Below are positions 8,440 through 58,530 of a stretch of DNA of 64,000 nt, piece by piece. The notes below the pieces were generated by a model, which was not told the origin of the DNA, did no database searches, and saw only the letters and a program-made list of their open reading frames with translations. Numbering within the stretch: the stretch's first letter is position 1; each line of letters opens with the position of its first letter. The stretch lies in NCBI GenBank assembly GCA_010093605.1, contig MU004198.1, positions 1,304,726 through 1,368,725 on the forward strand. Reading direction: 5' to 3'. The position numbers and the translations under genes are program-made. This DNA comes from Lophium mytilinum (Eukaryota).

Positions 8440-10194
8440 GTTGAGGAGGTAGTGAAGGATCCAAGGCAAGAATGCAAATTAAGAAGGGCGAGGCGAAACG
8501 CAAATGAAAGCAATGAGAGAAAACGGGAGAGCTAGGCGGGCATGGAGAACATGTGTTTCGTTGCTACAGCCGAGGTGGTGTTGCGGCGAGGCGTTTAGAA
8601 GAGAAGGCCTGGGCCTGTTGCAGTTGTGAGGGCAAAGGAAAAGTGAGGATGGAGAAGACTCGAGGGTGTCACATAATGTTGACAGATGTAAAGGATGTAA
8701 ATTAGGCGTCAAGGGCCCAGTTTTGGAAACGAAACAGAAGAACGTGCCTCAGCTGCAAACGCAGGCGTTCTGGGCGCTGCATCAGCAGATCGAGCCGTGT
8801 GCGGCGCCCTCATGCATGGCCAAGACTTTAGCTATCAGGAATCATCCTCCAGCCGGAGCTGAGCCGCCCACCGTGGAGTATGCAATCTGTCTAACGCTGG
8901 CTGAATGGTTGAGCAGGTCGCAATACCGGGCACGGGGGAATCCTCGAGTCTTGGCTTCTGGAGTTGAGTATGGGATCCGCATGAAATGTGGAGAAGCGCG
9001 TTTCAGTTTGCGTGTCCACAGGAACGCCCATTTGCAGCTTCAGCGTCGCGAGTTCCAGTATGCACTGTATGGCGGTTGATGTGAGGGGAAGTATTGGGGC
9101 GTTTTGCTAGTCCTCCCAAGCGCAGGCTAGTGGTGGCACTAGAATCGCCGCCATGAGTGAGGATGTGTTGTCGCGAGAGTGGTATCGCACGTGACTTTGT
9201 TGCATTCCCCAAATAACACACCCTGCGTGTATCTCATTGTTGCTACAAAGGGTGATTAGTCTCCATCATTTGAATCGTTATTGAGTCAGAATTTGCCAGC
9301 TGCTTCATCAGCAGATCATGGAGTCAAGTGGCCTTTTGCGGTGCAAGCCGTGCCTGCAAGTTTATTCGAAAGCGATGTTCCCATGCACATTTACGGACAG
9401 CTCAGTAGTCCGAGACCAATTTGTGGGTTGATGGTTGACACACCAACACTCCATTACCATTGCTGATTGCGCTTCCAGTTGTCTGGGCAGCGCAGCCCCC
9501 TGACAGCCACTGTCCGCCTCCCGAAGGTCTGTGCTGCGCCACAAAAAACATGTGAATCTTTGCCCAGGGAATGCGAGGAAATGCGAACCGCTCGGCTGCA
9601 TCTCAACCCCAACCTTGGACAGCCATGCAGACGCCGCCCGTTACGTGCTTGCCGCCCGGGTTCTCGGCACCAGTCGGCCAGGCCCCGCCGAACGCCGTGG
9701 CGGAGCAGCCCATGTCATTGCCTCCCGAGGCCACCACGGCCGCCTCCAAGGCGACGACGATGCAGAATACGGCGCGAATCAGCCTCGAAAGCCATCTGCA
9801 GTGCGCCGAATCTTCCCAGCATTCGGTAACCAGGAACCAGCACCCGTTCCTTGCATTTCATTAGCATTACAGCCTCTTCGTCGACATCCGAAGTCGGGCA
9901 AGAGTTCGTCGCGGGGCTGAGTTCAGCTAAACAAGCGTGCTCCGCCGCAGTACGTAGTTTCTCCTCAGTCATCATCGTCAGGCGCTGGTGGGGTACGACG
10001 CCCGTATAAAGCAACCCCACCAACCTCTCCAACGCCACTCCATCATCCATCGCTCCATCACCAAAGCATTGTTCATCATCAGCATACCGGGTCTCTCATC
10101 GAACCCCAGCTCGTCACCCTCCATCAAACCTAAGCAATTGACGCTTCTTCGGACACCCTATTTTTAACTCCGCATCTCGTTTCCTACCACCACA

Positions 10195-10884
10195 ATGTCG
10201 GACCCATACAACCAGTACGGCGGCCAGTATAACCAGTACGGCTCGCCCGCGCCTGGCCAGTATGGCCAGGGCTATCCTCAGCATGACCCATCGCAACAGC
10301 AAGGCGGATACGGGCAGGCTCCCTACGGCCAACACCAGGGTGGGCCGCCACAACAAGCATATCCTCAGAATCAGGGATATCCAGACCAGTATGGAGCGCC
10401 ACAACAGCAAGGCTACGGGCCGCCAGCCCAAGGCGGTTTTCAGCACAGCCAGAGCCAGAGCCCCGCACCATACCAAGATCCCTACCAACAGCAGAACCAA
10501 GGGTAATCTATCTCCAACATTCAGTCTTCCTTGTAACCAAACTAATACATCAACTTCTGTAGCTACCAGCAATACCCTGGCGCTCAGGCTGCGAATCAAT
10601 TCCCACAGCAGGGCGGCTATCAGAACAGCCAGGCGCCATACGACGCGAACAACCCCAACCAGTACGGCCAAGGCCACCAAGCCGGCGCATACGGTTCCAC
10701 AGACCCCGGCGCGCAGCAAGAGGGTGACCGCGGCCTGATGGGCGCTCTCGGCGGCGGTGCGGCGGGGTACTTCGGTGGTAATAAGATGGGCGGCCATGGC
10801 ATCATTGGCGCGCTCGCCGGTGCCGTCCTGGGAAGCAAGCTAGAGGACAAGCACAAGAAGCCCAAGAACAACGGCGGATACTAG
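10195..10884 (+). CDS. Gln/Tyr/Gly/Pro-rich protein with C-terminal glycine-zipper domain
   Basis: ATG 10195, intron 10503-10562, stop TAG 10882-10884. C-terminus GDRGLMGALGGGAAGYFGGNKMGGHGIIGALAGAVLGSKLEDKHKK. Confidence 0.85.
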
Positions 10885-12233
10885 TGACGCAACCGCGCCC
10901 TCCAGAGCTGCTGTTTCCTTTCCTGTTATTTGGTTTCTGGCGTTTTGGCATGTATCCACATGATAAGATGGACGGATGGACGGTTGGGACGGCCAAGGAA
11001 ATGGTAACCCCACAGCGAAAAGCCTATGAATATCTTTGGTATTGGTAAATACAGTTAATCAATGCATGCAATCTAACGAAATGAAAAGTTGAGATGCGCG
11101 CTTGGAAGTTCCGTGCTGTGTTTGTTCATTAAGCCGTAGTCGCTTAAACCCCTTGAGAATCTCAATACCCATTGAGACACTCCAGATATTGGAACAGCGG
11201 TATCAATGTTCGGAGATTAGCAAACTGCTCTTAGAAACAGCGCGCCGTGCTCTAAGCGCTACCCTTGATCCTCTCGATCTTCACTAGGGCTAGCTCTTAG
11301 CCACGTTGTGTTTGAGAGCTCCAAAGCTCCTGTGACAACTCAAATTGATCGCCATCAAGGAGGCAACCTCCGACGCCCGCTCGTGTCGCGGACAGTTGCC
11401 CTCCCATATGTCAGAGCAATACCTGCCGATGGTCAGGCCAACTCCTGCGTATCTCAATTTCCAAGAACTCTAGAGTTTCCCCAAGGGTAGACACTATTCG
11501 GTAAAACAGTCCTCTACTAATCCCTTCTGCTTTTGATTTCTTGCTCCTAACCCAGGAACTAAAGGATCCTCATTGTTTCGTATCGTTAGTGGGTACGACG
11601 GGCCGCTTCACAAGCTAGATCGATCTATATTCTAAAGGTTACTGCACCTAATGTTTTTGCTTCCGATTTACAAACTACAAGTTTTAACACTCTTAGAATA
11701 CGTTAGTAAATATGTCAGGCGGTTTTGTATTTCACAAGAACGTTTGTTTTGCCAATATCATCAATGCAAGTAGTGGATTAGTGCTATTTAAGAACAGTCT
11801 AGCGTCATCCTCCGAACTCAACCTCACACCCTCATCATCTCCCAAGTCCATCATCAAACCCAACCTCCCCGTCTCTCTTCATCTTCTCCAAAATTGCACA
11901 GCCCCGAACCCAGCCGCCCTCGGCGTCGCACGAAACACTGTCACAGCTCTCCGCCGACCACCAAGCCTTCCTTCCACGCAATCCTCTTGAAACACGAAAC
12001 AGGACACAAATCCTAGACCCGCTCAGCAATCCTTCAACCGCCGATCGCGCCTCCGACGAAAAGTAGACACGTAGGCTCTCCACGTGGCATCTACACTCCT
12101 AGCATTCATTTCTAGCAGCGTTCACAGCAATTAGCAGCGTAGCGAAACAGCACATGTTCAACCGTGCAGAATATGTGATTGAATTCTGTAGACTGGTCGG
12201 CTAGCTAGTAGGTAGGAGAAGCCTTCCCAGAAA

Positions 12234-12765
12234 TCAATGTTTCTCAAACTTCTCCGCCTGCAAAATCTTCATGCGGTCTTGCATGAGCTTGAGCTCTTCG
12301 GGAGTGGGCATAGCAGCGCGTAGCTCCTTTTGCTCCGCGGCTAGTTCTTTCGTCTCCGCTTCTAGCTTCGATATTCGCGCTTCTAGTTCTTGGTATACTT
12401 GATTACGTGTTAGTGAATGGCGCCGTGAGTTATGGAATGTTTTTGAAGCCGTGAAGCAGCCCTTCTAGGATGGGCTATATGAGGTAAATACCAGTGAGAA
12501 CTAACCTCCGGGATCGACGTTCTCGCCCTCCTTGGCCGGGGAAGCAGACGAATCGGCGGGGGGAGGCACATCCTCCATGGTGGCGTCGGATGCGGCGGTG
12601 GGTTTGCCATGGTCAGGACCACCGTGATGGTGACCACTCTGGCCGCCGCGAGCGCGAGTGTCCGTCTGAGTTTGCTGGAGGAGTCAGCATTGGCCTGAAG
12701 AGCGCAGCTAGAGTATGAGCTTGTAAGGTGTAGAAAGATTGGCTGCTTACCTTTTTATCGGCCAG
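12234..12765 (-). CDS. Small coiled-coil protein, 3 exons, apparent CTG start (or start-lost pseudogene)
   Basis: CTG GCC GAT AAA AAG|GTAAGC intron...GCTGAC..CAG| exon QTQTD...SDATMEDVP...|GTTAGT intron...CTAAC..AAG| exon VYQELEARISKLEAETKELAAEQKELR...KH*. No in-frame ATG upstream of exon 1. Confidence 0.5.
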
Positions 12766-12789
12766 GGTTGGGGTGATGTTGATGTTGAT

Positions 12790-13360
12790 GGTGATGGTGA
12801 TGGTGATGTTGCTAACGGGGAGGGCAATCCAAAGAGAACCGGCCCATATGAGTCCTCATCCTCCTCCTCATCCTCCTCATCCTCCTCCTCCTCACCCTCC
12901 TACCCACCCCTCACCTCACTCCCCTCCTTACTCCCCTCCTCACCCTCTATCGACCGCGACCACTCCTCCTCACCGCCCGCCACCGAAAGCTCTTCAAACG
13001 GGGGGCCAGTCCCGAACCAAAGGGGCCGGAGAAAGCCCTCCTCTGCCTCTCCCTATCCTCCCTCTCCTCCCAAATCACCGCGTGCTCCTACCTAAGCTCA
13101 GCCAAGCCAGCTACCGGGCCAGTCCCGAAACGAACGAGCCTCTGCCTCTCCCTCTCTTCCTTCTCCTCCCAAATCACCGCCATCTGCTCCCTCAGCTCAG
13201 CCAAGCCAGTTACCGCAACCCGAAGCCCTCCAACGATGTGGGGCTGGGGGTAAAAAAATCGCATCGAACAGATGAAGAAGAGGAAATGGCGGCGGGCCCG
13301 CGGGCCAGATACGCCGCCGTGGCGGTCATGACTGCGAGCGACGGGAACAAATAGGGGCAC
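12790..13360 (-). pseudogene. Disrupted acidic low-complexity ORF with internal ~90-bp duplication
   Basis: ELREQMAVIWEE is repeated as ELR*EHAVIWEE (TAG 13088-13090). A frameshift and a second TAG precede a poly-E/D tract. Confidence 0.35.
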
Positions 13361-13643
13361 GCAGCGTATGAGAGATAATTCGAAAAAAGATTCCTCGGAA
13401 TTTCTTCTCTTAACTCATGCGTATCATCTCGGAAAACAGTTTTCCAGGCACATGTCAAAGTGGATGGAGGCTGAAGGCAGAGAAGTTTAGGCAACACTGA
13501 GTCCCGAGAAGGCTCTTACATACTAGTACCAAAAAGCATAGAGGAAGACCTATAAGGGGGTACCCGAAGCAGCGACAGACCAAAATATCAAGACTTACGG
13601 TCTAATACTGTACACCTCCTCTTCCAGCCAATTGCACATCCCC

Positions 13644-16600
13644 TCACCCCCAAATGCGCTGATACTCAAACAGGCACACCGCGCCCGCCGTCTGCACATT
13701 CAAGCTTCTCGTCACCCCCTTCTGCTTAATCTCAACACACAGGTCTGCCTCCGCAAGCACTTCCGCGGGACAGCCTCCCTTCTCGCTTCCCAGCACGACC
13801 ACGCTTTTCCTCGGCACTACCGTTCCCTCCTCCCCTAGGACTTTGCTTCTATCCGTCTGCTCAACGCAAACAATGCTGTACCCTTCTTTCTTCTTGTCTT
13901 TCAAATATTTCGGGAGACCGGCGGGCCATAATTCAAATATGGGAATATGTTGGTGGCTTGTTACGGCTACGGAGGTAAACGCGGGTTGGCTGAGAGGTTG
14001 AAGAGAGGGAAGAGCGAGAGAATCTGCACCAAATATCTCAGCAATTCGGGAGAGCCCGCCGAGATTTGCGGGGTTGGCGATCAGAGAGGCGACGAGGATG
14101 AGAGGGGTATGCCGGCGGGCGGGGTCGGGGCCTGTAGGAGTGAGGAAGTGCTGCCAGGTTGTAGATTTGGTTTGGAGAGGGGCGAAGCTTGCGTCTGGAA
14201 GATCAGCGGAGGGCAAGGGCGCCGGAAGTGTTGCAGCTGTAGCAGATGAGGCGGCCATTTCGCTTTCGATTGGAGGTCTAGGTGAGCCAAGGACGATCAG
14301 CGGAGAAGCGTAAGGTTGAGGGACCGCAAAATCGTTGCGTGCATCTGCGGCCCAAACTGCTTCAAAGTCGGCGGTTGTAACGAGCTCGCGCTCTGGAGGG
14401 TAGGTGCGAAGATAGTCGCCTTGGAAAAGATTTGCTAAATTATGGTCTTTGACCAGATCAAGCGTTAGGGATCGGCTGTTGTAAGGTGAGGTTGGAGTTT
14501 GAAAGCGCCAAAGGCTGCGAATATGCGTATTCAGGGCAGCAAAAGCTGGGTTTGATAGTATATTCGACCAGCCGCGCGTTTCAACGTGGTCCCAGACGGA
14601 CGGGAAGGCCCAGTGTGCTTCGTGACGGATCTGAATCTTGCCGTTCGCGCAAAGGGGAACAAGGAGAGTGGCGACTTGAAGACTAAAGGATTCCGGGGTT
14701 TCGGGGAAGCAGGCAACCATGACTGCCATCCTCATCAAGGAAGCGGTGAGCTTCGGGTTCGATTCGCCTTGATTGCCTAGGTGGTCGAGCAAGAGACTAC
14801 GGTCGTCCGGACTGTAGAGGTAGAGACGTGCTAGTATCCATTCGAGAAGATACCGATACCTCGGCCATGGCTCCTTGGAAAGAATATCCATGAAGGCGTT
14901 GAGATATCGACTTATATCCACGGAATCTCCTTTCGAAATACAAGCCTCGGAAAGGATCAACATCATTTGCAGTTGGGTGAGTGTCTTCCATTTGCTAACC
15001 TGAGGCACAGGAGTCTTTTGTGTCGCCCATGGTTTGACCAGCTGGTTCAGAACCTCCTGAGCAGTAACAGCGTTGATGTTCGGCAGTCTGTTCACAAGAT
15101 CCATGACGCATGCGTAACCAACCCACTCGCGAGCGCCGTAGTACAATGTATATGAACGATGAGGAAAGTACATCTCGAGTTTTGAAGCGGCAGCACATTC
15201 AAAAACGAAATCGGGGCGCGGAGACGGAGGGCGATTGGCAAAGCGGAGGAGAAAGTCATCTACAGGCAGTATCGTCAAAACCTCGGGGTACGACAGGCAT
15301 GCGGTCCGGAGTGACTGTGCCAAAGGAGGTAGAAGATATGATCGGCTCTCAGACAACTTGTGAACACTTTCCACAATCCGGGGCAATAGAACATTTAGGC
15401 TGTCAGGGGAATGCTCTCTGGAGGGCGCGTCTTCGCTGATCAAGAATTGGATACAAGTTGGATGTAGGGCGAGACCTGGGATCCTCATGAGGGCTGCCTT
15501 TGGATACTCTTGGGTGTCCACTTCGTCCCATAAAACCTCCAAAGTTTCGTAGAGCAGACTTGACGGTATTTCTTGTACGTCGATACTATTCAGAGTGGAC
15601 TCTAGGGTATCAAGGGCTTGAAGCAGCCCATCACCCTTGACGGATCGATAGTTGATCGCTTTCAGTCGACGCGTGCAAGACTGCATAGTCGTAGCGTTAT
15701 TCCGGCTACTGTGATCATCTATGCCAATATCGAGATTCTGGTCCATATTTCCAAGTAGGCTAGCATCAGTCCTATTGGCATCGTGAGTACTGGGCGGCGT
15801 ACTCTCCAGCTTCTTCCATCTTTGCTCTAATCCTTCGACTCCAGGTACAGATGCGCGGACATCCTTTTCAGTCTCCTTGATGAAGGCCATGCAATAGGTT
15901 GTGCACAGATCTCTAGCTACTTCTGGCAGACCAGCCCGCACCGACATTTTGGCTACCAATGCTAAATCTTCAATCTCTAAGAAAACCAGAGATTTGGTGC
16001 TTCGTAATCCTCCCAAAAGGCCCTCTAGTATGTATAGCATAGCGTACGGAAAGACATTCACATCGTTAGCTATGTATACTAATACTTTCCTCAAGAATTC
16101 CAGCCGTTTTCCAGCACTAGAGCAACTCTCAGCGAACCTTCGAATGAGATTGCAAAGACTTTGCCCGTGAAGGCACTCGGTAGAGTCGCGAGACGAAACG
16201 AGCGATTGAGTAAATAAAAATCCCTGAGTTGCCCATGGGAGGATGCCCTGGAACAGCAACGCTTGTTGAGATTCAAGCCCGTCTTCGGAATGACTGGTGA
16301 AGTCGATGTACCAGAGTCCAATCATCTTCCGGATTCCATCCTGGATCTTGGAGCTCAACGCGGCTGAAAGAAGGGTAGTTATCCACGATATATGGATAAG
16401 AGAAGTAGAAGACATGAGTTTAGATAGATCGCCTAAACATGCTGAGACTTGATTAGGATATCGATCAAGAACAACCATTTCATACAAAGTACAGTATTTG
16501 GTATACTGTAGTTCATAATGGCGTCTATCTTGGAGCATGAAAGCCATGTGAGTATTTTGCACGTTAGTTTGTAAGATAGAGATTGACTTCTGGAGGATAC

Positions 16601-17730
16601 CGAGACAGAGCTTGCGCGGCTCGGAATACCCGTGAAGAAGCCCGACTTGAAGCAGAGACCAATACTGTGTCTGCTGAAGGATATCTTGGGAGGGTTCGTA
16701 TCCCCCAGACTGGTATATCCAACGAAACCATAAGCGAAACGCAGAGCCCACAGGCTCCGATTGTGAAGGGTTTGAAAGAAGATCACATGTTCTTTCCCAA
16801 ATTTGTGCGATCAATCCATCTCTTAGTTCTGTAGAATACGCAAGATACTTGCTCTCCAATAGAGGGAGAAAAGCAGCGATAACATCCCCAGAAGCGGTGG
16901 CTATCTCAGGACCAGCTCCAAGCAACACTAGAAGGCCTGTGAACATGGAGCCGGATATACTGATGTGCTTTTCGTTAGCATGCCAGAGTAGGACCTTCAA
17001 AAACGTAACGTATCGGATCGTAGTCGATACTTGATGACTCATGTCATCGGCGGAGGAAGTCTCATCTACGACCGGGATGCTTGAGGTTACGTGACGATCG
17101 AAGAAGTCTTCCGTTGGAACATGATATCCTAGGTCTGAGACGCGTAGAAGATGAGCTGTCATGAGAAGATCATCTTCAATGTGCTGAACAACCTGACGGC
17201 CTAGATTCTCATATTCGGAGCAAAGGCTTGCGATTTCACGCAGCTTTCCAGAGGCTTCATCGCTGGCGTCTAGTTCCTCAACGACGAGAGCGCGTAATTT
17301 TCCAAGACCTTCAGCCTGTGAAATAGTCAATATATGACGCTAAACATGCTCCTAGCTTTCACCTCTGAATGCTGAATATGGTGGGATCGACGAAGCTAGA
17401 GGAGGAACATAGGCGACATGAAAGAAGGAATGGAAACCAAAGACAGTTTAATTCGAATTATAGGACTAGAAGAAAGACAACGAAAGTCTTCTTTTATCGA
17501 TGAGACAGCTTAACTGAGATGCTGTACAGTGTCAAGCACAAGAGGAGAGAGGGATCACTTACGCTAGGACACGCCCGAAGTAGTTCAAGACCTAGCTTGA
17601 CGTTGGAAAGGTCTAAAAGATCTCTATTCCGAGGCCTCACACTCTCAATGAACGAACGGACGGTGTCTTCCCTGGCTTCAGATGGGATCCGATCCAGGAA
17701 TAGAGTAGCCAGCCCGGGTAGGGATGCCAT
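13644..17730 (-). CDS. TRM3: tRNA (guanosine-18 2'-O)-methyltransferase, Trm3/TARBP1 family
   Basis: 1228-aa open frame ending in a SpoU/TrmH domain (ASLIANPANLGGLSR, VVLGSEKGG, IKQKGVTRSLNV) after a long helical region. The upstream exon(s) from ATG 17730 are approximate. Confidence 0.88.
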
Positions 17731-18012: not shown

Positions 18013-20022
18013 ATGCACTCTTTCCTCCGCCTCAAGTCCAGAGAGTGCATCCGCGACTTGTGCGACCAACTCGAAGACATGGCCCTCGACTCCAGACTCT
18101 ACCGCGGCCTCAGCCCGTTTGAAACCTCTGCCTCTGCGCCCTCCCTCCGCGCTTCAGAACCCGCCGCTCTTATGGCTCCCCAACCCATCGCCGACGATGC
18201 CGGCCATGTCAAGGTCGTTGTGCGTGTGCGAGAGTTTGTCGAGAGAGGTAAGAGATTGCTCTACTGCTATGCAAATCTGAATACTAACTCCAAACAGAGA
18301 GAGTCAAAGGCACACCATGCATCATTCGAATGAATCCTGCCACCCAGGCGACCACTATCCTCGCACCCATCACCGACTTCGATTCCAACCTCTCCCGCGC
18401 GAACAACACTCGTAGGGCTTTCGAAGACAAGGAGTTTACCTTTGACAAGTCCTTCTGGTCTCACGACAAGGCGGATCCTCATTACGCCCACCAGGAAGAT
18501 GTTTACCGCTCGTTCGGGGAGGAGTTTCTCGACCACAACTTCGATGGATACCATACGTGCATCTTTGCGTACGGGCAGACTGGGTCTGGGAAGAGTTACA
18601 CCATGATGGGCACCGAGTCTCAGCCGGGTCTAATACCCCGAACCTGCGAGGAATTGTTCGATCGCATTCAACAAGACCCGTCGCCAAATACGAACTACCA
18701 TGTTCACGTTTCGTACTTTGAAGTCTACAACGAGCATGTTCGCGATCTTCTAGCGCCTCGCACTACTCCACCCATGTATTTGAAGATTCGGGAGTCTCAG
18801 AGCGATGGTGTTTACGTTCAAGGATTGAACGAGGTCGAGGTCAAGAACTTCGGCGATGTTCGACGTCTTATGGACATGGGCGACTCCGTAAGTTCCAATC
18901 TCAAACGTAGGTGAATACCAACTAAGACGAGCCCTGTAGACACGAACGACCGCAGCAACGAAGATGAATGACACGTCCTCACGTTCGCACGCCGTATTCA
19001 CAATCCAATTGAAGCAAATCCAGCATTCCCTTCTCTCAGACGAAACCATTGAGCGCTGTGCCCGCATGCGCTTGGTCGATCTCGCAGGTTCGGAGCGGGC
19101 GAAGAGCACCGAAGCAACAGGCCAACGTTTGAAGGAAGGAGGCCAAATCAACAAGTCCCTCACCACCCTCGGCCGCGTCATTGCCGCACTCGCCGACCGC
19201 GCAGCCGCCAAACGAGGACGCCGGCCTAAGGAAGTCGTCCCCTTCCGTGACAGCGTGCTAACATGGTTGCTGAAAGATAGCTTGGGCGGTAACAGCAAGA
19301 CAGCTATGGTGGCCTGCATCTCGCCTTGTGACTACGACGAGACCATGTCCACTCTCCGCTACGCCGACCAAGCGAAGCGCATCCGCACTCGTGCTTCCGT
19401 CAACCAAGACTGCCTCTCCGCCGCCCAGCGGGACGCCCAGATCACGGAGATGGCAGAACAGATCCGGTCCCTTCAAGTCTCCGTCAATGCCGCCTCGGTT
19501 CGCAAGCGCGAAGAAGCTACCGAGCTCGAAGAGTACCAGAAGCAGGTCGGCCACATGCAGCGCCTCATGGAGGAGACACGACAAGTCAGCGAGGCCCGCA
19601 TCCGCGCTCTGGCCTACGAAGTTGAGGAGTTGCGGCCGGAGAATACTTCCCTGAGAAACGAAGTCGAAGCGTTGAGACGGCATTTGTCGCTGGCGCTGGG
19701 CGAGCTGAAGAATCCCATCATCCTACCGCCACCGCAGCCGATGGAGATGGAGTTTGAGAACCTCCAGCCGGGAGACTTCGAGCATGAGGACGGGGAGAAG
19801 GATAGGGGTATTGAGGTCCTCGATCAGGGAAGCGAGTCTGAAGGCGACGGCGACAGCGACTATGACTCGGACTCTGGGTACGATGAGGAGTCCAACACCA
19901 TGGCGGAGGAGCTGCAGGCGGAGATGGAGGAGATCCTGAAGGGGGTTGCGCTGTTCCGGAGGAAGGTGCAGGATGATCACCAGCACTTCAACAGGAACGC
20001 GAAGGAAACTTACGCCTCCTAG
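18013..20022 (+). CDS. Kinesin-3 family motor, short fungal type (UncB/Nkin3-like)
   Basis: [19 protein letters not shown]-loop GQTGSGKS, switch I NDTSSRSH, switch [19 protein letters not shown] motif. Introns near 18248-18297 and 18888-18939. The start could be 18013 or 18172. Confidence 0.9.
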
Positions 20023-20440
20023 CCTGATACTAGATAGATTAGGTATGTGGATATTGGATGACGGAAAAGGCGTGGAAGGAAGGCTGCATGAAGCGATGGC
20101 GTTAGATTCGGGGTCTTTGTGGGCTTCATTGGCGTACTTTTGTTATTAAGTAGCAAATACCACTGTTTATACTATAACAACGGTCACGATTCTTCATTTC
20201 AGCCGTGAACTGCGTCCCTAGTGCGGCCGGTATCGCACCGCCTGAGGTGTCCCAGTGAGGAAGTCTCAGGGCGGTCAAAAGGTTGCGGTACCATGTGAGT
20301 GTGTTGGCGGACTTCAGACAGTGCTAAACAGGCGCGCGAAGAGAGCGAATCAATATTCCCTCGAGAAACTCACTTCACAGTAAAGCATAATGCGGTAATC
20401 ATCCTCCTCGCACGTGACATCCCTCTATTTCCTTGTTTCT

Positions 20441-20625
20441 GGCCTACATAACCCAGATAAATCTGATTACATTCATAATAAGAGGTCTACGACACAGAGG
20501 CGGGGTGGCAACACTTGACGTGCCTAGCGTGCGTGGTTCCTCTTATTTTGTCTTTTTTTTCATTTAGGATATGCTGGGATTCAGCCCTGGGTTCGAGCCC
20601 CGGTTGGCGCTTCTCTTTTTTGTAT
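20441..20625 (+). ncRNA. Candidate structured Pol III RNA or SINE-like repeat, copy 1
   Basis: Hairpin 20477-20547 with GCAA loop, then a T8 run, GGTTCGAGCC at 20590-20599 and a second T-run. Homologous to 27407-27570. Confidence 0.5.
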
Positions 20626-20650
20626 TTTTGTGGTTTGGGGCGGGGGTTTT

Positions 20651-20782
20651 GGGAATGGGGTGGAATGGGATGGAATGGAAAGGGATAGTACGGGAGGGAT
20701 GGTACGGGAGGGATGGAACGGGAAGGGATGGAACGGGATGGGATGGAACGGGATGGGATGGAACGGGATGGGATGGGATAGG
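20651..20782. repeat. G-rich pentamer/15-mer minisatellite (GGATG/GGAAC)
   Basis: Tandem GGATGGAACGGGATG units with degenerate flanks. Confidence 0.85.
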
Positions 20783-20991
20783 TTTTGAGGAGATGAGCAC
20801 GGCTTGAGTACGAGCTTATTTATGTTAAACACCTCACCGGAACGCAGGGCGGTACCGGCTCGCGAGAGGGTCCTCGGAAAGGCCGAGAGAAAATAGTACG
20901 GTGCCTCTTTGTAAATATCTGTACACCGGTCTACAGCTGCATAAGGTGCCTTGTGCTGTTTTCAGCACTCTAAATAGAAGAGAAATGCGGC

Positions 20992-21028
20992 TAATGGGAG
21001 TAATGGGAGTAATGGGAGTAAAGGGAGT
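20992..21028. repeat. 9-bp tandem repeat (TAATGGGAG)x3-4
   Basis: Three exact copies plus one degenerate copy. Confidence 0.8.
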
Positions 21029-21857
21029 CTAATAGTAGGAAGAGGTTATGGGAGATAAATAGTGAACTAATTAGGATACTCTAGGCGGTAGGCGGCATTA
21101 ATATAGTGTACACAGATGGGGTTTATGTTTGCTAACCCCCGGTCTCTAATACTATATTGGAGCCCTATAGGTAGTGACATAAAGGTAGGGTATACATTAG
21201 TTTACCGCTGCTTGAGGAGCGTCGTACTCTTTTCCGCAGTCTGAATGGAAGGAAAATGTGATAATTTGGATGACTAGGAAACTCGTAAGGGGAGTCTAGG
21301 GAGCGGCAACTTATCGTAGGTAGAGCGGTGTTAGGAGAACGTACGTCTTTCACTCGTTTGTCGCTGTCTGAAGTACCTCATAGTGTTTTCAACAATCTTG
21401 ATGAGTGAGGACTTCGGCGTTTCAGATGACTCGGAAACTCGAGAGGGGGCCAGGGGGCTCCAGATGGTGGCAGCGTGGGGTACGCACATTGGGTTTATAT
21501 CGGCCGCCCCCGGATCTTGTTAGGACATTGAAGACCCCCAAACAGTGGCAAGAAAGTGTACATTCACTAATGAAAAAGGAACTATACTCAGACATCGGCC
21601 TGATAACGCTATAAAAGACCCATCGCTTATGGGGAATCCACCAACGCCAAGCTAATTGATACTAAGAGGAACAAAGAAGAAAGCAATCAAGCCAAAAGTA
21701 TTAACAGAGGAGGGAAAGTAAGAAAAGGAATGCGCTTAAAGCGCAGCTACCTGTTTGCCGTAGACTTCAGATAGACCTTGAAGTACTCCAAACAGTGTCA
21801 ACCAGAGCCCAAACACCCACACCCTCGACGCTATATCGAGCGTAGACGCAGAGAACC

Positions 21858-22845
21858 TTACACCATCTCCGCAAACGGCGCGTTTTCCCTCAAATCATCC
21901 ACCAGATCATCCACATTGTTCAGATACCTGCCCAGCAGCCTCTGCTTCTCCTCCGTGCTCCGCGTTCCGCTCTTGGGCTCATCTCCACCTCCGTCGCCGC
22001 TCACAGTGCTATTCCGCCGCTCAAAGGCGCCCAGTAGCTTACTCGGACTCCGCTGCAGGCCCATCGCTGTATTCGGGGCACTCGCCGATCCAATTGACGG
22101 TGTTTCGGGCATGAGGTAGAAGTAGAGGAACTCGAGCAGCTTCAGCTTGACCTGCTGGGCGGTGTCCCGGCTCTTGAAGAGTGAGGTGATGGTGAGCAGG
22201 CCGTCGATGGACTCGAAGGTGCGGGTGTTGCGGGGAGTGCTGATCAGCGCGGTGACGAGGACGAGGAGGGAGGAGGATTGGATCGCTGGGCAATTGAAGG
22301 GGTCGAGCAGATCGAGTAGGAGGTTCATGTAGAGCTCGCGCGAGAAGATGGTGCGGGAAGGAGGATGTAGTAGGAGGATTCCTTGGAGATTTGAGAGAGC
22401 GGAGAGGATCAGCAGGTCGTTTTGGCCGCCTGGGGGTTGTTAGCGGGCCGGAGAGAGAAGACGGGATCATGGTAACTTACTAGTGCTCATACCAAGCAGG
22501 CGTTCGAGACAGGCAACTATCCGCGTAGCAACTAAGTAGCAAGATCAGCCAGTCTGGAGTTGTCCGTTGGGAATGTTGGCACATACCATTCCACTCAAAG
22601 CCATCTTGTATCCTGAAGAATTCCCTGAATGCTAGGTCGTCGGCCAAGTCGCTCAGCTTCTTCGGCGATGCAGTCTGGTTCAGGGTGATGGCAGAAGCTC
22701 GCCGCTTATGTATTGCTGCCGATGATTTCGAGTTCGAGAGGCATATCTGAGCGAGTAGTCCTTCGATCTGGCGTAAACCTTTGCGTATCTTCGAGGTGTC
22801 CTTCGAGGCGATGTTGTCAAACGACAACGACAGGAGGGCTTCCAT
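21858..22845 (-). CDS. cdc14: Septation initiation network protein Cdc14 (S. pombe type, not the phosphatase)
   Basis: MEALLSLSFDNIAS..KIRKGLRQIEGLLA, FFRIQDGFEWN, QGILLLHPPSR, NTRTFE and VKLKLLEFLYFYLMPE motifs; two introns. Confidence 0.85.
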
Positions 22846-23448
22846 CTGCACTCCCTGCTTGAGATGATAGCAGTGTGAGAGTTGGAGATGCTATGGTGCA
22901 GGTGTAGAGATGTGCAGGGAGATGGAGTCGGAGAGCTCTGTGCCGGATTGGTGGTATCGGAGAAGTGTGGTAGAGATTGAGATGCAGCAGGTGCAGGACG
23001 CCAACGAACTTTTGGACGGGCCCCAGACAAGTCTCCGCAATTTTTGGATCTGTGGGATTGGCAGGTGAGCGTTCTAGAAGGCTGCATAGAAGGCTCACTG
23101 TTGGGAAATAAACATGGCCCGTTGCTGTGGTGATTTAGATCGGTCCATTCAGGTCACTTTCAAGAGGTCCATGCGCTCTTGCATCGGCGATGTCGTGTCA
23201 CCACCACCTACAGACAGTCAGTTGATAGAACGTCAATGCTGAAGATGCAGCATCTCCAGAGCATTTCCAGTCTCGACACTCGTACCTCGCACAGCCCCGT
23301 ATCGAGCGCTCCATAATACCCAATCCGACATGGCTAAGTCGGCGAGTCGGTAGGAAGCACGGCGCATGTCACGCCGCGACTCCAGGGCCGTGAATATAAG
23401 AATATGGCATCTCACATGAGAATTGATCTATTCAGCTTCTAGTCAATT

Positions 23449-23760
23449 ATGTTCCGGGCTTTCAATCCTCGGCCGGCAATTAGGCGCATAGCAACCAGCC
23501 AACCCTCGATCATGTCTAGCTCCCAAAGAGCCAAGTTCAGCACTACAAAACCCACATCCGATACAGACTCGAAACCACCAAAACTCAAGAATCCGTCATT
23601 TGGAGGAGCGAGCCTCAAAGAGCTAGGCGCGAACCGGACTGTGAGGATCGTTGTAATTATCGCTTTGACGATTGCAGGCACAGCTGAGTCGATATTTTGG
23701 GCGAAGGTTCTTTGGGCTAAATTTGGGCCCTCTCCAAAGGACCAAGGAGACGAGGCATGA
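23449..23760 (+). CDS. Small predicted mitochondrial single-TM protein (103 aa)
   Basis: Arg/Ser-rich, acid-free N-terminus resembling a presequence; one hydrophobic segment IVVIIALTIAGTAESIFWA. Confidence 0.65.
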   Translation: MFRAFNPRPAIRRIATSQPSIMSSSQRAKFSTTKPTSDTDSKPPKLKNPSFGGASLKELGANRTVRIVVIIALTIAGTAESIFWAKVLWAKFGPSPKDQGDEA

Positions 23761-25025: not shown

Positions 25026-26855
25026 ATGGCGAAGCTTCAAGCTGCTGCGTCGGGCTACCCCGTTGCCATCTTGCGATTTGCTATTTTCGTGCCGTTCGGC
25101 ATTTACTTTGCAACTGCAGGCCAGCATTGGACAACTATTAGGAAGCACGATGTCCTTCAGCACGCTCCTTACAGTCCCAGCATAGGACATGGAGAGCTCA
25201 TTGCAGCAAGATGGGTATGCGTTCATTGTTCTCGTATCTCAGTCTTCTGTTCATGCGATCATCTTATACTCCTCCAATCTTCACGCCAACTTTTCTTCTT
25301 ATTTCAAACCTCCAGCTGTGATGTTTCTGCAATGCCAACGACGATCAATCACCAATCTTGACCAATTCAATCTCTGCTTCACTCTTTCTAGATCTGCATC
25401 TCATACATCATATGTGTTTCTAGAAAGTGTGCTGACCGAATAGACCAAAACGGGCTTCTACTGGAATTTCGCTATCTGGATACCCAACATCATCTTTCCG
25501 GGACCTCTCGTTTTCTTAGTCGGCGTCTTCGACGCTGCCATTGCTACCATGTTAAGCATTGCCGTAAATTCACAGACCAAGCACAGTCCGCACACGTTCG
25601 GTGCTTGCAAGTGGGGAGGCGCCGAAACCTGGCAGGTACCCAACGGTACTGAGAGCTTTTTCACTGTGGCTGGCCGACTGAACGCCACAGTCGCTTCCCC
25701 GGAGAGAATGTGCAGGGACTACGTACAAGAATGGCAATACAGTATGAGCATTGTGTGAGTGAAGTAGACCGATACTCTCTTGAACACACTCTAATCTACA
25801 ACAGATCCCTGTACTGGACAATCGCTCTCTGCAACCTGTTCTTCAGCATCACGTCAACAGTATCCGCCTTCAAGTCTTCAACCCCACAGACCTTTCGCAA
25901 GAATATGTTCGACTCCGCCATGGCCATACCTCGCCTCGTCTTTTTTATTCTCATGGGCTTGTCTATTATCCCCGTCATCATCTTCCGCTGTCTCCCCATC
26001 CCTATCAAATCCCGCTTCCGCTTTGGCACCCGCTATACCGTCAGAGCCACCGAAGTTGTGCCACCGCCAAACGAAATAAAAATGCGCATGATGCGGCCCA
26101 CGCCCATACCGCCCTCCCAAACGCGCTACGACACATATGGCGCCTACGAGCAATCCACCAACGCCCTCGCCGACTTCCTCAACTACGACATCCTCGTTCT
26201 CCTCGCCCGCGACCTCCACTACGTCGACCTCATCAACCTCTCCCTCACCTCAAAGACCATGCGCGACGTCGTCTTCCCCGGCACCGATCACGCCGCCCGC
26301 TCCGACCACTTCGCCCTCTATACCTGCGAGCCCGACTCAAAAACCGAGTGCTGGAACTGCACGCTGCAAACCTGCCGCGGCTGCGGCTTCTGGAGCAACA
26401 TGCCGCAGACCTCCACCCTCTTCCACCTCGACGCCTGCGAACCCTACTGCAGCAGCTGCTACTTTAGCCACGTGTGTGCGCGTAAGGGGAAGGTCATGGA
26501 CAACACGAAGTGCGTGTGCGCGCCGAAGCCGCCGCCGAGCTTGTGGAAGCGTGTGATGTTCGGCGAGACGTCGGCCAGGAATCAGGCGGGCGGGGCGTAT
26601 GCGCGCACGGCGGCGTCGCGGCTGCTGTGCGCGATGTGCTGGGAGATGGGGCCGGATGAGGTGGCGCGGCGGCGCGAGGAGCGCACGAAGGCCGAGTTGC
26701 GGGATCCGAATCGCTGCAAGGCTTGCGCGAAGTGTGGGCTGGCGTTGGGGCGGGGGGTGAGGTGGTGGGTGCATAGTCAGTGTGGGAAGGAATGTCGGAG
26801 TCGGTTGCATCTGCCGTGGGGGATACTGGGGAAGAGTAGGGATGAGGAGGGGTGA
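25026..26855 (+). CDS. Multi-pass membrane protein with F-box-like motif and Cys-rich C-terminus
   Basis: Exons at about 25026-25214, 25444-25754 and 25805-26855. Hydrophobic helices, then LADFLNYDILVLLARDLHYVDLINLSLTSKTMR, then multiple CxxC pairs. Confidence 0.7.
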
Positions 26856-27406
26856 GTGGAGGCTGGAGTGTTAGAAAGCTTATAATGTGCATTAGTCCAC
26901 CATCGGTCTTAGTGAAGAGGTTTGGTTCAGCAAGGCGTTCGGGTACGATTACACGATGTATATGACAGGAATTTCCATTGAAGTGTAAAGCACCTAGACT
27001 TAAGTTTGGCCACTCCTTGCAACTGCTTGGGGTACCTTGACTGGTTCTCAATTTCTGAAGATGATGTAAAGGCTAACGTAGCGAATATTAGGCTACCTTT
27101 TGACGAAGGATATAGCTGCAAGCTGGGGTATCCCTTATAGTGGTGTCGATTACTCAAGAATGGAGCCAAAGTAGTGGTATATCCAGGCGCCCAACCTTAT
27201 ATTATAGTACTACGCGTATACCAGACAAAGTACAATTACAGTAACTTTTCAACGGATAGCAATGCTACAGAACCAAGAAAAGTAAGAAGATACCTAGCTT
27301 GAGTAATCACCCCTCAGTGTAAACGAACTCTACCTTTCGAGCGACCGCGTATCAATCCGGTATCCGAGATCACGCGCTTACAAGTGAGGTGAAAAGCTAT
27401 CGGCTA

Positions 27407-27570
27407 GGCCATATAATCCGGAGTATTCTTGCTAAGATTATAATAAGAATGTCCCATGTCACAGAGGCGGGGTGGTAACACTCGACGTGCCTAGCGTGCG
27501 TGGAAACTTCTTATTTTGCATTTTTTGCCCTCCAGTCAACCTCAGGTTCGAGCCTCGGCTCGGATCCTGT
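27407..27570 (+). ncRNA. Candidate structured Pol III RNA or SINE-like repeat, copy 2
   Basis: Hairpin 27442-27515 with GTAA loop, then a T6 run, GGTTCGAGCC at 27545-27554 and a T5 run. Homologous to 20441-20625. Confidence 0.5.
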
Positions 27571-28193
27571 CTTTTTGCGTATTACTTATCTTTTTGGCTG
27601 GTGATTCTCCGGAGTCTTATCACGTGACCTATTACCTTTTCATCTCCAATGGTGCAATCTTTTGTATTGCTTCAGTACATTCCCGGCCTTCACCTTAGTC
27701 AGAGCTGACGTATCTTTCTTGGCATTTTTATCCTCGTCAGCTCAGGTTTTACGGGGATCATGAAACAAGACCCAATCATACGACCGACAGTTGATGCTTT
27801 AGGCATACTGAAACATAGATCGTCTTGGACTTGATGCGATGCGGTTAACGTTCGGGTAGCAGACGCATAGAGGGCTTGGTGTTTCATGCTTCCATGCTCA
27901 CACTCTCAAAACAGATATGAAGATGGCGTGCATTGAAAGCACGATCGCACGGCAATTGCCTGCTTGGTTCGTCTTCTAGAAGACGTTTCGGGATGGGAGG
28001 GATTACCTCGACGCGTTGTGCTTGGATGCCACAATGTCAGACATGATAAGGCATGTACATTTCTAATATTTTGAAGGTTATTGTCGCTTTATGAGTTGAT
28101 CTCTTCTGCTTCTTTTTCTCCAGTTCAACTCTTGCCGCAGGCGGCTTTTTTGATTTTCTTCATTTAAACTATTAGTATAACTTTTGCGCAAAC

Positions 28194-57909: not shown

Positions 57910-58530
57910 CCATCTCTGCAGTTGGATCGGAGAGTATTTGCAATAAATGCAACTACATGTCGTGCACGCCGCGCTATACATCAAGTCTTGAAAACACGAT
58001 TAAATCTGAGTGTGTTCGCAACAATTACAACTAGACGACGCGAACACTGCGCTACGCGTTAAGTGTAAATTCTTCTCTTCGCTGCAGTTCGATTGGGGAG
58101 TATTTGCAATAAATGCAACTACACGTTGTGCATATCGCGTTATACGCCGAGTCTACAAATCACAATCCATTACAGTTCAATCGGGAAGTATTGGTAACAA
58201 TTGTAACTACACGCCATGCACGCTAGAGCATCAATCGCCTCTAGACTCCATGATCCAGTACATTTGAATCAAGAAGTCCTTCCAATAAATAAGACTATAA
58301 GTCGTGCACGCCACGTTATACCACGAGTCTACAAACCACCATTCATCACGGTTCGATCCCGAAGCATTGGTCACAAATCCAACTACGTTCCGTCCATGCC
58401 GCTTTTCCAGGTCTCGTCCAACAAACATGATCCACTACAGCTCGGTCAGGAAGTTCTTCCAACGGATATAACCACCCATTGTGCACGCCGCGTTATACGT
58501 GAAGGCATAAAAGCACAGTTCGATCGTAGC
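57910..58530. repeat. Degenerate tandem array, about seven units of ~88 bp
   Basis: The AACTA-like anchor recurs at 57951, 58029, 58117, 58205, 58293, 58381 and 58470, with shared CAGTTCGATC..GAAGTATT..CAA..AACTAC..GTGCACGCCGCGTTATAC. Confidence 0.85.

Follow-up and report, generated by a model that had tools for sequence, protein, structure and literature searches.

The question raised by this locus is whether a long hairpin that occurs twice in the window (the whole stretch of DNA that was analysed, 64 kb in length) belongs to a gene for a small structured RNA that RNA polymerase III (Pol III) makes, or to a repeat of another kind. A sequence-only reading had drawn both hairpins with GNRA loops and had put forward three possibilities, namely a structured RNA transcribed by Pol III, the precursor of a milRNA, or a SINE family of tRNA origin. 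The two units, their hairpins and the core that the hairpins share are located as follows:

20441-20625, + strand: copy 1 of the unit, by direct reading
20477-20547, + strand: hairpin of copy 1 (MFE fold), 71 nt, 27 pairs, GCAA loop
20493-20536, + strand: conserved apical core of copy 1, with 2 differences from copy 2
27406-27580, + strand: copy 2 of the unit, by direct reading
27442-27515, + strand: hairpin of copy 2 (MFE fold), 74 nt, GUAA loop
27460-27503, + strand: conserved core of copy 2, containing A-like motifs at 27465-27475 and 27492-27503

The duplication is real and beyond chance. A blastn comparison (word 7) returns a reciprocal match between 20471-20559 and 27437-27526 (83.7% over 92 columns, E 2.5e-18) and no further copies in the 64-kb window beyond the two, while a repeat search of the window recovered the same 67-nt and 23-nt families. 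The two + strand copies of the 44-nt core are identical at 42/44 positions, and the number of such matches expected by chance is 0.00 in a dinucleotide-preserving shuffle.

The number of copies in the genome has been estimated using DNA contigs from two runs of the organism (X1 and X2); the window itself may have been derived from these runs. The summed contig depth at 27501 is 532.6 in X1 and 491 in X2, as compared with ~160-200 per single-copy contig, and there are therefore about three copies, namely copy 1, copy 2 and one more. A third copy is also found directly on a separate 18,555-nt contig, which matches 27460-27526 with 3 other letters and 2 gaps. The summed depth at 27476 is higher (1427 and 1470), and as contig ends overlap at this position, the resulting figure of about eight copies is an upper bound only. 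The family is thus a low-copy one, with at least three copies.

Both copies are intergenic, and each is located 300-460 nt past the point where the mRNA of a + strand gene ends. The neighbours of copy 1 are a kinesin gene (+) and a Cdc14/SIN-component gene (-), where RNA contigs end at 20177 and 21163, and copy 2 lies between an unnamed + strand gene upstream (RNA contig end 26982) and an MFS transporter gene downstream. Results from a protein search indicate that the best named relatives of the kinesin fragment are from the Pleosporales (68-75% identity), and the host is therefore a Dothideomycete-like ascomycete, not Neurospora. The Neurospora framing of the sequence-only reading was consequently misplaced, as the host belongs to a different fungal class. 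Spliced RNA contigs from the kinesin, Cdc14/SIN and unnamed genes delimit short introns of ~50-55 nt, plus one 229-nt skip (spliced-out stretches 18246-18295, 18888-18939, 22429-22479, 22532-22586, 25214-25442 and 25755-25804). Elsewhere in the window, an open frame of 1231 aa on the minus strand (13647-17339) ends in a SpoU-type RNA methylase domain at the C-terminus, and is probably a tRNA or rRNA 2'-O-methyltransferase gene.

Repeats of other kinds are also found in the neighbourhood of the two loci. G-rich mini-/microsatellite arrays are present just 3' of copy 1, at 20650-20779 (periods 5 and 15) and 20992-21028 (period 9, 4.1 copies). The DNA contig depth over 20672-21339 is 9,000-14,700, as compared with ~170 for single-copy sequence, and the simple repeats in this region are therefore dispersed genome-wide; many loose contig ends are found at 20992-21029. 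A 19-nt inverted repeat (20311-20329 / 21356-21374, 84% complementary, arms 1026 nt apart) brackets copy 1 together with the satellite arrays, and may be due to chance. Approximately 300 nt upstream of copy 2, DNA contigs contain an opposite-strand joint from 27037 to 27180 and other contigs match 27063-27144 with 12-14 differences; the stretch 27037-27180 looks like a low-copy dispersed or inverted repeat. A second low-copy repeat is located between the hairpin loci at 23415-23547, where other genomic contigs match with 14 differences and the bin depth is about double. Finally, the sequence CACGTGAC, which includes an E-box-like CACGTG, occurs at 20411-20418 and 27621-27628. These occurrences are on opposite sides of the hairpins, the first 66 nt upstream of hairpin 1 and the second ~105 nt downstream of hairpin 2, and are probably due to chance.

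The folds drawn in the sequence-only reading were reproduced for both copies, including the GNRA loops. Copy 1 (20477-20549) forms one long imperfect hairpin at -30.4 kcal/mol (z -3.55), as does copy 2 (27442-27517) at -26.9 kcal/mol (z -2.83), and the outer 8-9 bp of the hairpin form a perfect inverted repeat. The minus strand folds more weakly, at -21.2 kcal/mol for copy 1 and -20.2 kcal/mol for copy 2. The presence of several G·U pairs, together with this strand-specific fold, points to RNA rather than a DNA palindrome. Stabilities of this order are ordinary in the window: when 21,310 stretches of 73 nt were sampled, 164 had a fold energy of -30.3 or better, and 75 were single long hairpins at -26.8 or better. 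What exceeds chance in this finding is that the unit is duplicated and conserved as a mosaic; the fold energy does not. Pairing beyond the hairpin is less uniform, as the 140-nt folds of the hairpin plus downstream sequence differ between the copies. The proposed extension of the pairing through CCCAG/CTGGG to ~145 nt is present in copy 1, but by direct reading the aligned bases of copy 2 lack a partner at the corresponding position. Long-range pairing between the upstream flank and the T-arm region was likewise considered as a feature of the family and was rejected, as it occurs in copy 1 only.

The distribution of differences between the two copies is uneven. From 5' to 3', identical positions make up 15/41 of the sequence further upstream, 20/36 of the upstream 36 nt, 11/18 of the basal 5' arm, 42/44 of the core, 8/11 of the basal 3' arm, 9/13 of the T tract, 7/24 of the spacer (which includes 13 gap columns), 15/19 of the B-box island and 12/30 of the sequence beyond the B box. 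The sequence that separates the kept blocks has diverged. The occurrence of kept blocks within diverged sequence argues that this is not a decaying repeat, because decay would be even. By direct reading, 2/6 transitions are found in a CpA/TpA context, and the differences between the copies are not obviously the result of RIP.

The changes within the hairpin have also been compared with its pairing. When the comparison is anchored on the base of the basal helix, the two hairpins differ by nine substitutions and three one-base insertions, and each of the 27 pairs in copy 1 is matched by a pair in copy 2. Five of the substitutions are in paired bases, comprising one G-C to A-U double change at the eighth pair and three one-sided changes that pass through G·U, and the other four are in unpaired bases, two of them within the internal loop and one each in the bulge and the loop. 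The fold-keeping differences that had been claimed from the sequence (the GCAA to GUAA loop, G·U to G-C swaps, a changed bulge and the G-C to A-U change at the eighth basal pair) are all present. Zero broken pairs were obtained in 6/3000 random trials in which changes could fall anywhere, with the same numbers of transitions, transversions and insertions, and in 2/3000 trials in which changes were placed as observed, mostly in the basal part; these frequencies stem from one pairwise comparison of two readable sequences, for which we made the basal alignment and its indels ourselves. The energy version of this test is weak, as 434/3000 and 276/3000 random mutants fold as well as copy 2. RNAalifold, a check named in the sequence-only reading, was applied to a MAFFT alignment of the two copies and returned 20 upper pairs, of which 16 are the same in both copies, 3 differ on one side, 1 differs on both sides and 0 are broken; MAFFT sets the basal gaps differently, and the basal stem drops out of this consensus.

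Each hairpin is accompanied by a series of candidate Pol III signals. In the following, +1 is the first base of the hairpin (20477 / 27442), which is an assumed start site:

20445-20454, + strand: weak TATA-like box TACATAACCC of copy 1, at about -30, aligned without gaps to the box of copy 2
20498-20508, + strand: A-box-like motif 1 AGGCGGGGTGG of copy 1, +22 to +32, by direct reading
20525-20536, + strand: A-box-like motif 2 TAGCGTGCGTGG of copy 1, +49 to +60, identical in both copies
20546-20560, + strand: T4-GTC-T8 tract of copy 1, a candidate Pol III terminator, 9/13 columns identical between the copies
20587-20603, + strand: T-arm-like stem-loop of copy 1 with B box GGTTCGAGCCC (20590-20600), five pairs, one of them G·U
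20616-20621, + strand: second T-run of copy 1, T6, 13 nt past the T-arm-like stem
27410-27419, + strand: TATA box CATATAATCC of copy 2, with TATAAT from -30
27514-27526, + strand: T4-GCA-T6 tract of copy 2, by direct reading
27542-27558, + strand: T-arm-like stem-loop of copy 2 with GGTTCGAGCCT (27545-27555), 4/5 pairs, one A·C mismatch
27572-27576, + strand: second T-run of copy 2, T5, 13 nt past the T-arm-like stem

The decamer GGTTCGAGCC is found solely at 20590 and 27545 in the 64 kb, where 0.18 occurrences are expected and at least two were obtained in 0/100 shuffles. The identical B box in a T-arm-like stem described in the sequence-only reading is thus exact in both copies, 43 nt past the hairpin in copy 1 and 30 nt past it in copy 2. 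When compared with the B-box consensus GGTTCGANNCC given in an excerpt of PMC12498455, copy 1 agrees at every position, while copy 2 departs from it at the final C. The window contains one more exact match to this consensus, GGTTCGATCCC at 58350-58360, which has neither a tRNA-like nor a hairpin context. The T-runs at the end of the hairpin are also as described, with T4 then T8 in copy 1 and T4 then T6 in copy 2.

The A-box-like motifs are less distinctive. Motif 1 (AGGCGGGGTGG) agrees with 7/9 of the specified positions of the A-box consensus and is weak alone, whereas motif 2 (TAGCGTGCGTGG) has one extra base and one mismatch relative to the same consensus. The latter motif is the A box named in the sequence-only reading; it is present and identical in both copies, but it makes a weak argument, as the loose A-box pattern occurs at chance frequency (59 in the window vs 64 expected). 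Judged by position, motif 1 at +22 would be better placed than motif 2 at +49. The A-to-B spacing is 92 and 80 bp when measured from motif 1, and 65 and 53 bp when measured from motif 2; a spacing of 30-90 bp is normal for tRNA genes according to an excerpt of a review.

The explanation that we favour, tentatively and with a probability somewhat short of even, is that each copy may be a compact unit for Pol III transcription, of the type with an 'extragenic B box', that makes a 75-85 nt hairpin RNA. TFIIIC would bind two sites, the downstream B box (20590 / 27545) and one A-like motif within the apical core that is conserved, and would place TFIIIB on the TATA-like box at about -30. Transcription by Pol III would then begin with the A that opens the hairpin (20477 / 27442), or close to it, and stop in the T4...T8 or T4...T6 tract. 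The predicted product is a 75-85 nt RNA in which a long imperfect hairpin, closed by a GNRA loop, is followed by a short 3' tail rich in U. On this Pol III reading, the 44-nt core would be conserved because it is both the internal promoter and the apical part of the RNA, and the basal stem would be free to change in sequence while its pairing is kept. The Pol III structured RNA of the sequence-only reading therefore stands as far as its gene-like anatomy is concerned (mosaic conservation, kept pairing, T-runs and an exact B box at the level of sequence), while its transcription, its polymerase and its RNA ends are predictions. A variant of this explanation places the start near 20505, which would yield an RNA of ~50 nt that lacks the 5' arm. 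A second TATA-like stretch is found at the 5' end of the hairpin itself, and motif 2 would then be located at +20, which is the canonical position. This variant is disfavoured by the compensated changes in the 5' arm.

What such an RNA would do can only be guessed. One possibility is that the RNA is a directly transcribed, shRNA-like substrate for RNAi, where each copy would produce its own small RNAs from the variable basal stem. A directly transcribed hairpin family with basal-stem small RNAs specific to each copy would, on this guess, show exactly the conservation pattern that is observed. A second guess is that the RNA may be a small structured RNP RNA that is bound via its conserved apical part. 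Taken further, the first guess becomes the proposal that a family of natural 'shRNA genes' in a Dothideomycete is the cellular counterpart of the retroviral compact Pol III hairpin gene, which we consider quite unlikely. The core would then serve as the internal promoter, the extragenic B box would recruit TFIIIC, and the varying yet paired basal stem would provide each copy with a guide RNA of its own, made by Dicer. These guide RNAs would be produced with neither a Pol II transcript nor a Drosha-like step.

Several known systems share parts of this anatomy. In excerpts of PMC5622367 and PMC12498455, the pre-miRNA genes of bovine leukaemia virus (BLV) are described as units of ~100-130 bp from which a hairpin is directly transcribed; the A boxes are internal to the hairpin, a terminator follows, and the B box comes immediately after the terminator. 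The order of hairpin, terminator and B box just past it is therefore the same as that observed here, and is a working Pol III design. In the genes so described, the hairpins measure ~55 nt and their 5' arm contains the A boxes, at +3 to +19, whereas the hairpins here are 71-74 nt with A-like motifs at +22 to +32 and +49 to +60. Similarly, BLV-B1 is presented in those excerpts as lacking an upstream TATA box, whereas copy 2 has one. The BLV genes are viral and share no sequence similarity with the loci described here, which are cellular. The S. cerevisiae gene for U6 snRNA, SNR6, has a TATA near -30, an internal A block near +20, a T-run terminator and a B block downstream of the terminator. 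The sequence elements of the two copies fit the SNR6-type layout in order and spacing, where motif 1 agrees at 7/9, the TATA of copy 1 is weak and the start site is assumed. In contrast, the A-to-B spacing of SNR6 is ~200 bp, as compared with 53-92 bp here, and its product is U6 rather than a simple hairpin that has no Rfam match.

Likenesses to hairpin precursors and to tRNA genes are also of a partial kind. The Pol III-dependent milR-1 to milR-4 of Neurospora crassa, as described in an excerpt of PMC3547838, have hairpin precursors, a T cluster immediately downstream and TATA-like elements, as do the loci here. The same excerpt reports no predicted A or B box for milR-1, whereas the loci here have an exact B box. 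The loci resemble tRNA genes in that the B box is contained in a T-arm-like stem-loop, in that ~13-20 nt separate this from a following T-run, and in having A-box-like motifs upstream. In contrast to tRNA genes, the loci here have no cloverleaf and have a T8/T6 run between the A and B boxes.

Searches for known families have also been carried out. Rfam 15 gave 0 matches at the gathering score in the 64 kb and ARAGORN found 0 tRNAs in the window, which agrees with the statement in the sequence-only reading that the hairpins have no likeness to U6, 5S or an intact tRNA. When the threshold for Rfam was extended to E up to 10, both copies returned unrelated weak matches alone (atoC, SOX2OT and a minus-strand snoR4). 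Assignment of the loci as tRNA genes was rejected, as no cloverleaf was found by ARAGORN or Rfam; a B box in a T-arm was found, with copy 2 short of the last C. The possibility that the core resembles Y RNA, or 7SL/Alu RNA at its 5' end, was dropped as Rfam returned no SRP or Y RNA match at E up to 10. A SINE would be expected to have its promoter wholly within the transcript, a retroposition tail, target-site duplications and many copies. Assignment as a SINE was rejected, as a T8/T6 run separates the A-like and B boxes, similarity reaches upstream of the putative start, the copies number about three and no direct repeat is seen in the flanks. Assignment as a MITE was rejected as the repeated unit exceeds the hairpin on both sides, the ends of the unit are not inverted repeats and the bases that flank the hairpin are not duplicated.

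Relatives of the core were sought more widely. A gapped 22-base pattern over the 5' half of the core gave 0 matches in metagenomes, and a 17-mer over A-like motif 2 gave 18 metagenomic loci, none of which has a hairpin context and most of which are 58-78% G+C; these were treated as chance. The single match in a prokaryote genome collection is from a bacterial MAG, where the similarity ends with the pattern, and is likewise attributed to chance. As the metagenome and prokaryote collections are not fungal genome databases, these blanks say little about the spread of the family. A full-text literature search with the core strings as DNA and as RNA returned no paper, and a search of the literature on Dothideomycete SINE, MITE or Pol III elements found nothing relevant among the entries listed.

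Contigs from two further runs, X3 and X4, carry spliced GT..AG joints and are from RNA. One X3 contig holds the core, with 27460-27503 joined to 20553 onward, at a depth of 4.59, as compared with 500-650 for neighbouring mRNAs. This contig continues past the T-run and, if it is RNA, reads through the supposed terminator. It may represent another member of the family, a graph chimera or carried-over DNA. Over the two hairpins, the joint contig is the only contig from X3 and X4, and it is not taken as evidence on expression.

Four other explanations have been weighed against the Pol III unit. The perfect B box in a T-arm-like stem-loop, with a T-run ~13-20 nt later as at the end of a tRNA gene, suggests that each copy could be a decayed locus that was derived from a tRNA gene and underwent a few duplications as DNA. 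What is left of the 3' half of the tRNA gene would then be the B box, the T-arm-like stem and the trailing T-run, while the hairpin would be an insertion or a rearranged 5' half with no RNA function of its own, and TFIIIC might or might not still bind. Motif 2 resembles a D-arm A box, and tRNA-like drawings can be forced from ARAGORN with lowered thresholds and introns allowed. However, these relaxed drawings disagree between the copies in boundaries, anticodon and intron, the window contains 0 tRNAs according to default ARAGORN, neither copy is matched by the tRNA model of Rfam at E up to 10, and no acceptor pairing is conserved. Furthermore, a dead remnant would not keep a core at 42/44 and all 27 pairs beside a spacer at 7/24, and we regard this origin as unlikely. 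The hairpin could instead be a structured element or a milRNA precursor within a longer Pol II transcript (a lncRNA or an extended 3' UTR), where the T-runs and B box would be incidental or otherwise used. Both copies are indeed 300-460 nt downstream of + strand mRNA 3' ends (RNA contig ends 20177 and 26982), the X3 contig with the core runs beyond the T-run, and fungal milRNA precursors are hairpins of similar size in the excerpt of PMC3547838. Nevertheless, a Pol II transcript leaves unexplained both the exact 10-nt B box in diverged flanks and the conserved T-runs directly after the stem, and the upstream genes have RNA contigs that end well short of the hairpins. This explanation appears improbable.

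The exact B box is also expected if the loci act at the DNA level as 'extra TFIIIC' sites that form a chromatin boundary, in which case the palindrome would be a protein-binding or structural feature of the DNA and no stable RNA would be made. The intergenic location of both copies between unrelated genes is consistent with such a boundary, as is the conservation of the B box without consistent downstream RNA pairing (the 140-nt folds differ). However, a boundary site needs neither T-runs nor a TATA box at fixed distances, and the keeping of pairs through G·U and the clearly better folding of one strand are signatures of RNA; we hold there to be little chance that this explanation is correct. 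A MITE or SINE, where the arms of the hairpin would serve as terminal inverted repeats and the copies would differ through ordinary decay or RIP, would account for the perfect outer inverted repeat of 8-9 bp, for the several genomic copies and for the company of other dispersed repeats nearby. In contrast to what is expected of such elements, similarity passes the hairpin on both sides (upstream box, T-runs and B-box island), the hairpin-flanking bases are not a direct repeat by direct reading, and the copies number about three, not tens. The divergence is also a mosaic in which pairing is preserved, with 2/6 transitions in CpA/TpA context, and for a SINE the T8/T6 run ahead of the B box would cut the promoter out of its own transcript. 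The tRNA-derived SINE option of the sequence-only reading was set aside on the same T8/T6 run between the A-like and B boxes, on the similarity that reaches upstream of the putative start and past the terminator, and on the number of copies (about three). Many copies with target-site duplications, which that reading had named as the pattern that would tell against it, were looked for; about three copies and no flanking direct repeat were found. A mobile element of either type is accordingly very improbable.

The significance of the compact Pol III unit depends on its transcription. If the loci are not transcribed, they are a minor low-copy repeat with a tRNA-like remnant. If they are transcribed, an undescribed Pol III small RNA would be added to the short list in filamentous fungi. 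The design of hairpin, terminator and external B box, which is known from yeast U6 and the BLV miRNAs, would, if this explanation is true, also be found in a cellular gene family, and these loci would allow for a direct test of whether fungal small RNAs arise from self-contained Pol III hairpin genes. The units may additionally provide a compact native promoter and terminator cassette for the expression of guide RNAs or shRNAs in Dothideomycetes.
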